A stretch of DNA of 64,000 bases from positions 864,001-928,000 of the forward strand of contig CAWGHO010000002.1 of NCBI GenBank assembly GCA_963822445.1, in the 5' to 3' direction. The position numbers and the translations under genes were made by a program. Below the pieces are notes generated by a model. The model was not told where the DNA came from and did not search any database. It saw only the letters and a list, made by a program, of their open reading frames with translations. The first letter of the stretch is position 1. Every line of letters begins with the position of its first letter. Positions 2,015 to 53,484 of this stretch are shown piece after piece. Source of the stretch: an uncultured Acidobacteriota bacterium. GTDB lineage: Bacteria > Acidobacteriota > Thermoanaerobaculia > Gp7-AA8.

Positions 2015-2042
2015 GATCGCTCCTCCTCGAAGCCCGCCTACA

Positions 2043-20527: not shown

Positions 20528-21431
20528 CTACCTCGGCAACTGGTGCGCGAGACTGCGGTCGATCGTCGGGTAGTCGAACGTGAACCCTTCCCGCTGAGCG
20601 CGCGCGGGAAGGACCCGCTGGCCGGCGAGCAACATCTCCTCGGCCTTCTCGCTCCCGAAGGCGAGGCGAAGGGCGAGGGCGGGCGTGGGGATGAGGGCCG
20701 GGCGGTGGAGGGCGGCGCCGAGGGCGCGGCCGAAGTCGCGGTTGCGGACGGGCTCGGGTGCGGTGGCGTTGTAGATTCCGCGAGCGGTTTCGGTCTCGAG
20801 TGTCCACTCGATCATGCGCACCGCGTCGTCGCGGTCGACCCAGGACATCCATTGCCGGCCGTTGCCGAGCGGACCGCCTGCGCCGAGCTTGAACGGCAAG
20901 AGCATCTTGCCGAGCGCGCCGCCTTCCGGCGCAAGCACGATCCCGAAGCGGACGATCACCAGTCGCGCGAGCGACTCGGCCTCACCCGCCGCGGCTTCCC
21001 ACTGCGTCACCAGATCGGCGAGAAAACCAGTTCCGCGATTCGAGGACTCGTCGAGCTGATTCGTCGCCGCGATTGCCGTAGAAGCCGACCGCCGAGGCGT
21101 TGATGAACGCGCGTTTCCGGGCCGGCTCGCGCCTGATCGCTTCGACCAGCGCGCGGGTCGCGTTCACGCGGCTGTCGACGAGCCGTTGCTTGCGCGCGTC
21201 CGTCCAGCGGCCTTCGCCGATGTTCTCGCCGGCCAGGTTGATGATGGCTTCGGCCGCGGCGGCTTCCGCCGACCAGGCCCCTTGCGACTTGCCGTCCCAG
21301 GCCAGTCCGCGTCCCGCGTCGACCTTCGAAGGATCGCGTGACAGAACGGCAACGTCGTGCCCTTTCGCAATCAGCCGCCGAACCAGCGGCTCGCCGATGA
21401 ACCCGCTACCGCCTGCGACGACGATTTTCAT
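20528..21431 (-). CDS. TIGR01777-family NAD-dependent epimerase (YfcH-like), one frameshift near 21060
   Basis: MKIVVAGGSGFIG, INLAGE, SAVGFYG, WE, RFGIVL...GGAL, G.Q..SWV, N..AP.PV.N..F, LL.GQRV.P; removing one base joins the two ORFs. Confidence 0.9.
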
Positions 21432-21451
21432 GCGCCGGATCTTATCGCGCC

Positions 21452-21488
21452 AAAACACGACCGCCGGCCTTTCGGCCGGCGGTGCGCG
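21452..21488 (-). terminator. Intrinsic terminator
   Basis: ACCGCCGGCC-GAAA-GGCCGGCGGT followed by CGTGTTTT on the - strand. Confidence 0.8.
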
Positions 21489-21547
21489 TCAAATCAGGAG
21501 GAGATAGGAGATGTGTTTCAGGTGCCCGTTTCGTTTCGTCCGTCGCT
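21452..21547 (-). ncRNA. Candidate small regulatory RNA (~95 nt) with CU-rich anti-SD seed
   Basis: Lies between an ECF-type promoter (21554-21578) and an intrinsic terminator (21452-21488); contains CAUCUCCUAUCUCCUCCUG; no ORF on this strand. Confidence 0.55.
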
Positions 21548-21553
21548 AAGTAG

Positions 21554-21578
21554 GACGCGGCCGCGGGGAAAAGGTTTC
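21554..21578 (-). promoter_or_regulatory. ECF sigma-type promoter
   Basis: GAAAC-16 bp-CGTC with a T-run after the -35 (GAAACCTTTT), immediately after the tsaD stop. Confidence 0.6.
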
Positions 21579-22598
21579 TCAGCCGATCCGCGACCTGGCT
21601 ACGACCCGCCGGGGATCGGTGGCGACGCCCTTCTGGAGCCCGGCGAAGGCGATCATGGCCGCGTTGTCCGTGCAGTAGCGCTTCTCGGGGAGACGGATGA
21701 TGAGGCCGCGTTCGCTGCCCCACGCCTGAATCCGCTCGCGCAACACACCGTTCGCCGCCACCCCGCCAGCCATCGCCACCTCGGTCGGTTTCGGCTGCTC
21801 CAGCCCCGCCCACACGGCCTCGATGCGATCGAAGAGTTGCGCGAACAGCGCGTCTTGGAACGTGGCCGCGAAATCGCCGAGCGCCTGCGGATCGCCATCC
21901 GCCCGAATCGCATGTTCGCGCGCCAGCCGGATGGCCCCGGCCTTGATCCCCGAGTACGAAAAATCCAGCGACGCCTCGGTGAACCGCGGCATCGGAAACG
22001 GGAACCGCTTCGGATCGGCGGTGCCGCGCCGCGCGTGCTTTTCGATCTCCGGACCGCCCGGATACGGCAACCCGACGAACTTCGCGACCTTGTCGAAGGT
22101 CTCGCCGATCGCGTCGTCGCGGGTCCGGTTGATCTGCCGCACCTGCGCGCCGCGCACGTCGTAAAGCGCGGAGTGACCGCCGGAGATCACCAGCGACAGA
22201 AACCGCTCCGGCAACGGCGTGGCCGGACCGTCCTTGGCCAGGTACGGCGAGTAGATGTGCCCTTCGAGATGGTTGACCGGCACGATGGGGATGCCCAGAC
22301 CGTAGGCGATCCCCTGCGCCCCGGCCACACCCACGAGCAGCGCGCCGATCAGCCCTGGGCCCGAGGTAACCGCGATCGACTCGACGTCCGGCCAGGACCG
22401 GCCGGCGTCCCCCAGCGCGCGCTCGACGAGCGGAAAGAGATGCTGCAGGTGCTCGCGCGACGCGATCTCCGGTACCACCCCGCCGAAGGGTTGATGCCGC
22501 TCGATCTGCGAGGAGATGAGATTCACGCGTACGGTGCCGTCGCCGTCGAGCAGCGCGACCGAGGTTTCATCGCAGGATGTTTCGATTCCAAGGATCAT
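21579..22598 (-). CDS. tsaD: tRNA t6A threonylcarbamoyltransferase TsaD
   Basis: ILGIETSCDET, GGVVPEIASR.H, GPGLIGAL, NHLEGH, SGGH, DDA.GE.FDK, AGGVAAN, CTDNAAMI. Confidence 0.96.
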   Translation of the reverse strand: MILGIETSCDETSVALLDGDGTVRVNLISSQIERHQPFGGVVPEIASREHLQHLFPLVERALGDAGRSWPDVESIAVTSGPGLIGALLVGVAGAQGIAYGLGIPIVPVNHLEGHIYSPYLAKDGPATPLPERFLSLVISGGHSALYDVRGAQVRQINRTRDDAIGETFDKVAKFVGLPYPGGPEIEKHARRGTADPKRFPFPMPRFTEASLDFSYSGIKAGAIRLAREHAIRADGDPQALGDFAATFQDALFAQLFDRIEAVWAGLEQPKPTEVAMAGGVAANGVLRERIQAWGSERGLIIRLPEKRYCTDNAAMIAFAGLQKGVATDPRRVVARSRIG

Positions 22599-22640
22599 CG
22601 GGCCTCGCAAACAACGACTCTATAATCCGCCACTCTTACT

Positions 22641-51927: not shown

Positions 51928-53484
51928 ATGAAACGCGCATTGCTACTCGCAGTGGTCGTTGTTCTCGTCCCCCTCACCCTCTCCGCGCAGACCACGGGCG
52001 ACAACCGCCCGACACTCGTTCTGCTCAACGCCAAAGTCTTCACCGCCGATCCCGCGAAGCCGTGGGCCGAGGCGGTTGCCATTCAGGGCTCGAAGATCCT
52101 GGCCGTCGGCACGATGGCCGAGATCCGCCGGCTCGTTCCGGACGATCCGAAGTTTCCCGTGATCGATCTGCGCGGCCGCGTGGTCATCCCCGGCATCAAC
52201 GACGCGCACACGCATCCCGGCGACGCCGCCACCGCCTTCCGTCCATCGATCGGCTTCGACGTCGGTTGGTCCGAGGCTCAGGCAGCCATTGCGAACGCCA
52301 TCGATGAGACACCCGGCGACATGTGGATCGTCGGCACACTCGGACCTCGACTCGCCAGCGATCCCAGCCTCACCAGAACGCAACTCGACAAGCTCGCGCC
52401 CGGACGCAAGATCATCCTGCGCTCGTTCACCGGACACGGCGCCGTGTTGAGCAGCGCAGCGATGGCGGCGCTCGGCGTGGGTGAAAATGCCGTCGATCCG
52501 CCGGGCGGCTCGTTCGGACGCGACGAAAGCGGCCGCCTGAATGGCCGGGTCTCCGAGTACGCGCAATGGGCGCTCGATCGGCGTTTCTACAACCTGGCCA
52601 CCGATGACGAACTGGTCGACTCGGTGCGTTCCTTCGCCGCGGAAGCGCTGCAGTACGGGATCACCTCCGTGCAGGCGATGCCCAACCCCGACGAAGCGCG
52701 CTTCATGAAAGCCTGGCGCGCGGCGGGCGTGCCCATCCGCCTGCGCGTGATCAACTTTCCTACGACGCCGGACGCGCCACTGGTGACGGGCGCGCGGGGT
52801 CTGAAGTGGATCTTCGACGGAACGCCGATCGAGCGCGGTGCCGCGGTGCGCAAACCGTACAGCGGCGGCGGGCAGGGCAGCATCAACTTCAAGGACATCG
52901 CCGGCCCGATCAAGCGCGCCCGCGAGACCAATCAACAACTGCTGGTCCATGCGTCGGGTGACGAGACCATCGCCAGGCTCCTCGCGGCGATGAACGCCAT
53001 CTCACCGAACGAATGGGCGGCGAAGCGGCCTCGCATCGAGCACGGCGACGGCCTGCAACGCGATCTCTTCGACGCCACGAAACGCCTCGGCATCGTCGTC
53101 GTCCAGAACCCGTCGCATTTCCCTTTCCGCGGCGCGTTTCCCGCGGGCGATTACATGCTCGCGAAATCGATCGTCGACGCCGGAATCCCGCTGGCCTTCG
53201 GCTCGGACGGTCCGTTGAACCCGTTCCTGAACATCATGTTCGCCACCGATCGGCCCGATCTTCCTGCCGAGGCTCTGACGCGGGAGCAGGCGGTGACGGC
53301 TTACACGGCGACGGCGGCCTACGCGGAATTCGAGGAAGGGAAGAAGGGAAAAATCGCTCCGGGGATGCTCGCGGACCTGGCCGTCTTGTCGGACGACGTC
53401 TTCAAGTCGCGCATCGCCAACCTCCCCGAGATCCGCAGCGTCATGACGATCATCGACGGGAAGATCGTGTACCAGAACCTGTAG
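51928..53484 (+). CDS. Exported amidohydrolase (YtcJ/amidohydrolase 3)
   Basis: Signal peptide; PG..DAHTH; K...DG; HASGD; RIEH; FGSD; G.IAPG.LAD. Confidence 0.9.
   Translation: MKRALLLAVVVVLVPLTLSAQTTGDNRPTLVLLNAKVFTADPAKPWAEAVAIQGSKILAVGTMAEIRRLVPDDPKFPVIDLRGRVVIPGINDAHTHPGDAATAFRPSIGFDVGWSEAQAAIANAIDETPGDMWIVGTLGPRLASDPSLTRTQLDKLAPGRKIILRSFTGHGAVLSSAAMAALGVGENAVDPPGGSFGRDESGRLNGRVSEYAQWALDRRFYNLATDDELVDSVRSFAAEALQYGITSVQAMPNPDEARFMKAWRAAGVPIRLRVINFPTTPDAPLVTGARGLKWIFDGTPIERGAAVRKPYSGGGQGSINFKDIAGPIKRARETNQQLLVHASGDETIARLLAAMNAISPNEWAAKRPRIEHGDGLQRDLFDATKRLGIVVVQNPSHFPFRGAFPAGDYMLAKSIVDAGIPLAFGSDGPLNPFLNIMFATDRPDLPAEALTREQAVTAYTATAAYAEFEEGKKGKIAPGMLADLAVLSDDVFKSRIANLPEIRSVMTIIDGKIVYQNL

Follow-up and report, generated by a model that had tools for sequence, protein, structure and literature searches.

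A predicted ECF-dependent small RNA at the 3' end of tsaD in an uncultured order of the Thermoanaerobaculia

The small RNA (sRNA) MicL of Escherichia coli is sigmaE-dependent and is transcribed from within the cutC coding sequence, and MicA and RybB, which also depend on sigmaE, lower porin synthesis, as described in PMC4102768. FoxI of Fusobacterium nucleatum, again sigmaE-dependent, represses membrane-protein mRNAs, and the same account describes its host as being without Hfq (PMC9546586). The alphaproteobacterial cuckoo RNAs (RSs0680/CcsR and C14) are described as having 2–4 adjacent hairpins with CCUCCUCCC in each loop (PMC4615179). The stretch of DNA analyzed here, called the window, is 64,000 nucleotides (nt) of contig CAWGHO010000002.1 (assembly GCA_963822445.1, positions 864,001–928,000) from an uncultured bacterium of the Acidobacteriota, class Thermoanaerobaculia. 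The element in question lies on the minus strand, in the gap between tsaD and a gene whose identity, from a family model match, is TIGR01777.

We consider it probable that this element encodes a trans-acting sRNA, dependent on an extracytoplasmic function (ECF) sigma factor, which arises from the 3' region of tsaD, belongs to a sigmaE-like regulon, and presumably represses mRNAs at their Shine–Dalgarno (SD) regions. The sRNA gene is well supported, and from it and its context we infer the mode of action. The gene architecture, its conservation, and the sharing of the promoter appear from the comparison of sequences. The positions of the promoter, A-rich part, CU stretch, hairpin, U-tail, and TAAGAT box, as given in an earlier reading of the letters alone (the first-pass annotation), all proved correct, and the features are as follows.

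21579–22610, minus strand: tsaD open reading frame (ORF), Pfam PF00814 at 273 bits, with the TGA stop codon at 21581–21579
21570–21578, minus strand: −35 element GAAACCTTT of an ECF-type promoter, read from the sequence and abutting the tsaD stop codon
21551–21557, minus strand: −10 element CGTCCTA, the AAC-N16-CGTC spacing spanning 21576–21554
21452–21547, minus strand: predicted sRNA of about 96 nt, its ends placed from promoter geometry and terminator
21514–21547, minus strand: A-rich, U-poor 5' spacer with ACGAA/CGAA repeats, of a length that differs among genomes
21491–21513, minus strand: conserved CU-rich stretch CAUCUCCUAUCUCCUCCUGAUUU, the putative seed, with two CUCCU units
21460–21483, minus strand: terminator hairpin with a 10-bp stem and a GAAA loop
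21451–21459, minus strand: tail CGUGUUUUG, with a U run at 21455–21452
21439–21444, minus strand: TAAGAT, a −10-like box placed 7 nt ahead of the ATG (21431–21429) of the downstream TIGR01777 gene

The promoter can be read on the minus strand as GAAAC at 21578–21574, 16 nt, and CGTC at 21557–21554. The RNA would begin about 7 nt past the CGTC and end within the U run. Its hairpin is the sole terminator-like site within 21000–22000, where shuffled sequences give 1.1, and the fold z-score of the element is −2.0; GAAAC-N16-CGTC has 2 matches in the window, with 1.11 expected. Judged on the window alone, chance is not excluded for promoter motif, terminator, or fold. The element is nevertheless beyond chance because it is conserved in 68 related loci and because of the outcome of the promoter tests given below.

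The module survey began with a DNA search of 40 relatives, through which the tsaD loci of 19 further genomes in the genus were obtained. The whole module stands downstream of tsaD in 20 of 20 same-genus loci, including the window's own, in the order G(A/T)AAC(C/T)TT, N11-12, xCGTC(T/C)xA, a spacer of ACGAA/CGAA repeats, (A)UCUCCUA(C)-UCUCCUCCUGA, and a GC hairpin with a U run. Counts here and below include two unpublished genomes, G002 and G130, one genome each, and no conclusion depends on them; G002 is among the 20 genus loci, G130 is among the 27 untrained matches discussed with the promoter, and both are among the 30 sigma loci and 28 HtrA loci. The idea that the gap is a self-contained minus-strand unit has held, the ECF-type promoter, the CU-rich stretch, and the terminator all being kept as a set. 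The module is also a unit of its own, since unrelated sequence has been inserted between the tsaD stop codon and the promoter (188 nt in G003, locus L013, and 241 nt in G021, locus L018), since G007 (locus L005) carries it twice in tandem (1620–1745 and 1798–1921, each copy with promoter, seed, and terminator), and since its neighbor is swapped in G009 and G004. In these two genomes a TIGR01777-like gene lies upstream on the opposite strand and a valS-like ORF follows the RNA, which stays by tsaD. The insert in G021, bounded on either side by inverted repeats of the CACAGG/CCTGTG type, looks like a small mobile element.

In all, 68 modules were verified, from 18 genera of the family and from two sister families of the same order. 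In the sister-family genomes G027 and G025 the promoter lies within the last part of the tsaD ORF, where it begins 41 and 30 nt before the stop codon and scores 25.5 and 25.4, respectively. Nothing comparable was seen in a third genome of the order (G026) at the place inspected, or in G031 and G036, which belong to other families of the class and are the only class-level genomes inspected. G110 has a GC hairpin and then U9 after the tsaD stop codon and ahead of the sRNA promoter; the fold there, with a z-score of −0.88, is not unusual. A variant at locus L260 (G041, genus g16) has the promoter and ACCUCCUAC, about 170 nt of extra GC-rich sequence, and then a terminator-like hairpin.

Covariance models were used to extend the search. 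Model R1, which comprises the seed and hairpin only, without promoter columns, finds one copy in the window's own genome at 67.5 bits, the next match being at 26.9, and matches 32 of the 34 other genus genomes and 52 of the 124 family genomes, own included. Model R2, built from 48 copies, matches 73 of the 124 at E ≤ 0.01. All 13 new first matches of R2 that were fetched adjoin tsaD and have promoter scores of 16–29; the seven second matches fetched have neither tsaD nor promoter and were rejected as false positives. Five of five genera that were negative with R2 nevertheless have the module downstream of tsaD, the promoters there scoring 15–25.5. In a phylum-wide sample of 151 genomes, R1 matched only the window's own genome, a single member of the family, and G270, where the match is false and has neither tsaD nor promoter. 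Because both models miss diverged copies, as the five "negative" genera demonstrate, the scarcity of phylum-wide matches does not show absence.

The promoter provides a test that is independent of R1. A position weight matrix (PWM) was built from 21 genus promoters, and the 200 nt upstream of each untrained R1 match was scored with it. Of 31 such matches, 27 score 9.2–32.8, with 26 of the 27 at 18.2 or more, compared with a median of −10.1, a 99th percentile of 3.0, and a maximum of 11.1 for 3000 stretches of 200 nt drawn at random from the own genome. A model match in G137 lies outside this promoter-checked set. The four matches without a promoter are exactly the four that do not adjoin tsaD; they resemble ordinary terminators and were rejected as false. 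With a PWM built without the own copy, the sRNA promoter ranks first in the 6-Mb genome, at 27.2 bits. Among 61 modules, the spacing between AAC and CGTC is N16 in 56 and N17 in five, the −35 variants include GAAACCTT (42), GAAACTTT (10), and GTAACGTT (5), and the −10 variants include CGTCTGA (33), CGTCCTA (9), and CGTCCAA (9). Between the two blocks the sequence varies while the blocks and their spacing are kept. The consensus of ECF promoters is AAC at −35 and CGT at −10, 16–17 nt apart.

The same promoter shape is found elsewhere in the genome. The third-ranked PWM match lies outside the window, 19 nt before a gene for a 200-amino-acid ECF sigma factor (C2:1080110–1080709) with Sigma70_r2, r4_2, and TIGR02937 domains; the gene after it encodes a weak, sub-threshold anti-sigma N-terminus with HEAT repeats. 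This sigma factor is found in 35 of 35 genus genomes, at 59–92% identity, and xxAAC(C/T)TT-N-CGTCCAA stands 16–19 nt before its ATG in all 30 genus loci that were fetched. An ECF sigma gene that is preceded by a promoter of its own type is commonly taken to be autoregulated. Another match in the own genome, GGAACATTT-N11-CCGTCTGA, stands some 110 nt upstream of an HtrA/DegP-like gene with Trypsin and PDZ domains, of which 33 of 35 genus genomes have orthologues. GGAAC..CGTC stands at a constant position before this gene in 28 of the 28 loci with enough upstream sequence, and 23 of the 28 promoters score above the 99th percentile of the background. The reading of the motif as an ECF promoter, offered originally from its shape, is therefore strengthened by its presence before both genes across the genus. 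Other top matches, seen in the own genome only, precede genes for an S41 protease and for DUF4097, PEGA, outer-membrane-like, and HAMP-SpoIIE membrane proteins. Membership of degP and autoregulation of rpoE are hallmarks of the sigmaE regulon, and by analogy an autoregulated sigma factor, a DegP-type protease, and a small RNA would make up the pattern of a sigmaE response. That this ECF sigma factor reads these promoters is suggested by the motifs that they share. In the own genome the HtrA/DegP-like gene, which lies outside the window (C1:1424937–1426501, locus L157), is split among several frames, and its open frame is 313 amino acids long, compared with 469–614 in 32 relatives.

The predicted RNAs of the 61 modules are 84–144 nt long, with a median of 102. 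The seed is conserved, its best-kept letters being CUCCUAC: CTCCTA is present in 58 of the modules and CTCCTAC in 48, while 51 have a pair of CTCCT units no more than 12 nt apart. Its predicted unpaired probability has a median of 0.62–0.68, compared with 0.26 for the hairpin, and exceeds 0.5 in 46 of the 61. The hairpin, the single helix of the consensus structure, was examined on 48 copies, in which 95.2% of cells are paired and changes on both sides occur at 8 of 12 pairs; none of 500 shuffles reaches the observed covariation score, and slid controls pair 19–69% of cells. The first-pass annotation had proposed a comparison of tsaD-downstream regions, and its outcome is that promoter, seed, and covarying hairpin are all kept. 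Spacer and linker, unlike the seed, are variable among the copies; the spacer is 40% A, 26% G, 24% C, and 10% U, and the distance from the −10 element to the first CU motif is 23–84 nt. The number of (CGAA)/(ACGAA) units in the spacer differs widely between close relatives, in the manner of a microsatellite.

Does the RNA belong to a described family? With 4227 Rfam models at the gathering threshold there were no matches in the whole window or in 11 homologous loci, in agreement with the first-pass statement that no described family fits, and sub-threshold matches around the element are at chance level (E-values 0.13–0.6). Among these are weak matches over 21451–21513 to the Betaproteobacteria toxic sRNA (RF02278) and STnc50 (RF02059), which are short, CU-rich, and terminator-ended like the module. 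Both were dismissed as chance, RF02278 scoring 17.1 against a gathering score of 50 (E 0.6) and RF02059 scoring 21.1 against 55 (E 0.42). A full-text literature search turned up no regulatory sRNA from the Acidobacteriota and no paper on an acidobacterial sRNA of this kind.

The likenesses to known systems are those of organization. sRNAs that are embedded in a 3' untranslated region (UTR) and have their own promoter form a class named the MicL/DapZ type, and the module has the features of this class, with a promoter at or within the end of the upstream ORF and a terminator shared with tsaD. As with MicL, an ECF-type promoter lies at or inside the 3' end of an unrelated housekeeping ORF, the terminator of the host gene is shared, and the regulon also includes the sigma gene and a DegP-type protease; there is no similarity in sequence or structure, however, and the module RNA is far shorter, has a CU-rich seed, and occurs in a different phylum, the Acidobacteriota. 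The module also has the features of ECF-dependent sRNAs, namely the promoter shape, a promoter common to the sigma gene and regulon, and a terminator together with an accessible conserved seed. MicA and RybB are about 80–100 nt long, similar to the module RNA, and the predicted logic, in which an envelope-stress ECF sigma factor leads to a short terminator-ended sRNA and that to repression of exported proteins, is the same. They are not homologous to the module, though, which is constantly linked to tsaD and for which repression of envelope proteins is a prediction. FoxI provides a precedent for a non-coding arm of a sigmaE-like response outside the Proteobacteria, but it was shown experimentally, whereas the module RNA is predicted; the sequences are unrelated, and the genome studied here has an ORF with an Hfq domain. 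The cuckoo RNAs, as their source describes them, share a CU-rich, anti-SD-like motif in more than one copy per RNA. The module, by contrast, has one hairpin, the terminator with its GAAA loop, and its CUCCUAC..CUCCU is single-stranded and outside loops; with a single hairpin, and with CCUCCUCCC absent from the own copy, we do not assign it to the cuckoo family. The best reading is that the module RNA represents a new sRNA family of a known kind of sRNA.

What might this RNA do? The 3' tail of the 16S rRNA is canonical, both rRNA genes having been located with the Rfam SSU model, and the Hfq-domain ORF of the same genome, at C2:2424184–2424342, scores 29.5 bits against a cut-off of 27. An SD 4-mer is found at 1346 of 4659 starts (about 29%), compared with 605 in a control window, a strong SD 5-mer at 643 compared with 145, and TAnnnT boxes are most frequent genome-wide between −16 and −12 of starts, with about 628 against about 125 expected. 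From these counts at predicted starts, most genes are not led by an SD and starts of the leaderless type are frequent, in line with what the first-pass annotation had suspected of many genes. Contiguous complements to the seed of at least 9 nt occur in 22 start regions, compared with 5 in intragenic controls and with 2–7 for five shuffled seeds. Among the leading candidates are genes for an outer-membrane protein that resembles TonB-dependent receptors (C2:15748, with a 10-nt match), for a secreted subtilase, and for a secreted protein of ice-binding-like type; the HtrA-like gene has a 9-nt match. N-termini resembling signal peptides are found in 32% of strong-SD genes and in 20% of all genes (odds ratio 2.0, p = 1.5e-13). 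Because strong-SD genes are enriched in this way, a CU-rich RNA would preferentially hit exported proteins.

We propose the following scheme, in which transcription, the sigma factor that acts, the pairing, and the targets are predicted. An ECF sigma factor would drive the synthesis of an sRNA of about 96 nt from the promoter that abuts the tsaD stop codon, or that lies inside the tsaD ORF in the sister families, and the sRNA would end at the intrinsic terminator common to tsaD. The sRNA would belong to a sigmaE-like regulon with the autoregulated ECF sigma gene and the HtrA/DegP-like protease gene, and would accumulate when the sigma factor is activated. Its mostly unpaired CUCCUA(C)..CUCCU(CCUG) would then pair with purine-rich, SD-containing start regions of mRNAs and lower their translation. 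The sRNA would provide this response with a non-coding repressor arm, and the Hfq-domain protein may assist it.

Several results weigh against this scheme, most of them against its last step. The target tests use our own crude gene calls (4661 genes and 4659 start regions). At these start regions, duplex energies are no better for the seed than for five shuffled seeds: the mean is −9.57 kcal/mol, with 188 sites at or below −18, while the shuffled seeds have means of −9.46 to −11.39 and 166–329 such sites. Among strong-SD genes, signal peptides are found in 40% of those matching the seed compared with 31%, a difference that is not significant (p = 0.16). UAGGAG, which CUCCUA(C) requires, accounts for 35 of the 437 occurrences of AGGAG at start sites, fewer than any other context. 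Two individual candidates were rejected. The gene for a DUF4488 protein (C3:203074), with an 11-nt match that is the longest to the conserved seed core, is present in only 2 of 35 genus genomes, the second carrier being G002 alone; for ExbD (C3:114739), the UAG of the site serves as stop codon for the gene before it, and comparison of 28 loci shows the site to be variable. The first-pass proposal that the RNA blocks AGGAG ribosome-binding sites is a tentative one, given the energies, the want of a conserved target, and the rarity of UAGGAG. The assignment to an ECF sigma factor, and to this one in particular, is drawn from motif shape and shared promoters, and the own genome probably holds many ECF sigma factors. 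Finally, read-through from tsaD yields the same sequence as a 3' UTR, and part of the RNA pool could be derived from the mRNA. A genome-wide duplex scan seeded with 8-mers brought up chiefly imperfect duplexes within genes, long and rich in GC, and is uninformative, and the start region of the sigma gene, compared with the seed by eye, pairs over at most about 7 bp in relatives and over fewer in the own genome.

Complements within the window do exist, as the first-pass annotation had noted, at AGGAGGAG (2020–2027, minus strand) and at TAGGAGA (53482). TAGGAGA occurs five times in the window (6773, 10528, 30122 on the minus strand, 53482, and the sRNA antisense), where 1.39 are expected, and a count of five is reached by 2 of 100 shuffles. 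The copy at 53482 is 9 nt before the predicted start (53498) of a protein of 725 amino acids with a signal-peptide-like N-terminus.

How else might these observations be explained? The ECF-driven sRNA may be real and yet be no general SD blocker, acting instead on one or a few specific targets that match CUCCUAC and its flanks, by titration of an RNA-binding protein, or in concert with its variable (CGAA)n spacer. This is possible, if unlikely on balance. It would fit the start-region energies, and, UAGGAG being the rarest SD context, the invariant UAC letters of the seed go beyond generic SD pairing; the tandem CUCCU units kept in 51 of 61 modules and the enrichment of long complements at start regions (22 against 2–7 in shuffles) speak for SD pairing all the same, and DUF4488 and ExbD, the targets examined, provided no specific conserved target either. 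Somewhat more doubtful is the idea that the sRNA is an ECF-triggered mimic of the 16S 3' tail, which would mask SDs in bulk and shift translation globally toward SD-less and leaderless mRNAs. Envelope stress would then turn translation away from the SD-led minority, with its enrichment in exported proteins, rather than regulate a few targets.

The remaining explanations do without a separate sRNA gene or a trans-acting role. That the element does no more than provide tsaD with a 3' UTR and terminator, with an unused promoter-like motif and a small RNA formed by processing or not at all, we regard as improbable. The window has no terminator-like site between the tsaD stop codon and the hairpin, at which the tsaD transcript probably ends, the element always adjoins tsaD, and the bare promoter motif is not significant within one window. 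Against these points, 56 of 61 modules keep the promoter blocks at N16 despite variation in the intervening sequence, the promoter moves with the RNA across insertions, in the tandem duplicate of G007, and behind the hairpin and U9 of G110, and the same motif precedes the ECF sigma and HtrA-like genes. It is very unlikely that the element is a cis-acting leader or attenuator of the TIGR01777 oxidoreductase gene, transcribed from the ECF promoter. This gene does follow the module in 18 of 20 genus loci and in other genera inspected, but in G009 and G004 it is upstream on the other strand and the valS-like ORF follows the RNA instead; no conserved alternative pairing with the terminator arm was seen, and the distance from terminator to ATG ranges from about 15 to more than 150 nt. 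The downstream gene also has a −10 box of its own right at the ATG, without an SD, and this TAnnnT box (TAGAAT, TACAAT, or TAGACT) is kept 6–8 nt before the ATG in relatives while the unit stays with tsaD, so that the first-pass judgment that the RNA is not the leader of this gene stands. A small protein as the product is scarcely credible, whether from the plus-strand micro-ORF at 21511–21549 (MCFRCPFRFVRR), which the first-pass annotation had raised as a competing product, or from a leaderless minus-strand ORF. A strong SD-like run does precede the plus-strand ATG in the window, and an ATG, GTG, or TTG lies at most 22 nt after the −10 element on the minus strand in 50 of 61 modules. However, the micro-ORF is not conserved: 11 of 48 modules have no SD-preceded start on the plus strand, and the peptides are unrelated to MCFRCPFRFVRR. 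On the minus strand, 11 of 61 modules, the own copy included, have no start, and the peptides range from 1 to more than 45 amino acids with the frame not kept, spacer lengths falling into all three phases (27, 18, and 16). By comparison of the copies, neither strand of the module holds a conserved ORF.

The neighboring genes of the window require some comment. The true start of tsaD is likely the ATG at 22598, as the alignment of relatives begins at residue 4–5. The downstream TIGR01777 gene, with its TAAGAT box and without an SD, has a leaderless-type start. It occupies 20528–21458 on the minus strand as two overlapping ORFs, 20982–21458 and 20528–21010, which span model positions 1–123 and 141–291, respectively. 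The two parts share one frame in relative L003, where the frame was checked, whereas their offset in the window is 421 nt, and there is therefore a frameshift near 21000, reflecting either an assembly indel or a pseudogene. The broken HtrA-like gene and the split TIGR01777 gene together suggest indel errors in the assembly.

We return to the ECF-dependent sRNA as the preferred explanation. If it is transcribed as predicted, it would be the first defined sRNA family for this uncultured order of the Thermoanaerobaculia, and it would provide a readable ECF promoter motif for the order. The occurrence of the promoter outside, at the edge of, or inside the host ORF among related lineages would be useful for the study of how 3'-UTR sRNAs evolve. 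The sigma factor, the HtrA-type protease, and the sRNA would constitute a minimal sigmaE-like regulon. In the accounts cited above, a non-coding repressor arm has so far been shown in Proteobacteria and Fusobacteriota (PMC4102768, PMC9546586), and the Acidobacteriota would be a further phylum in which ECF envelope responses have one. By analogy with the envelope-stress small RNAs of E. coli, the module appears to be a counterpart that has so far gone undescribed.

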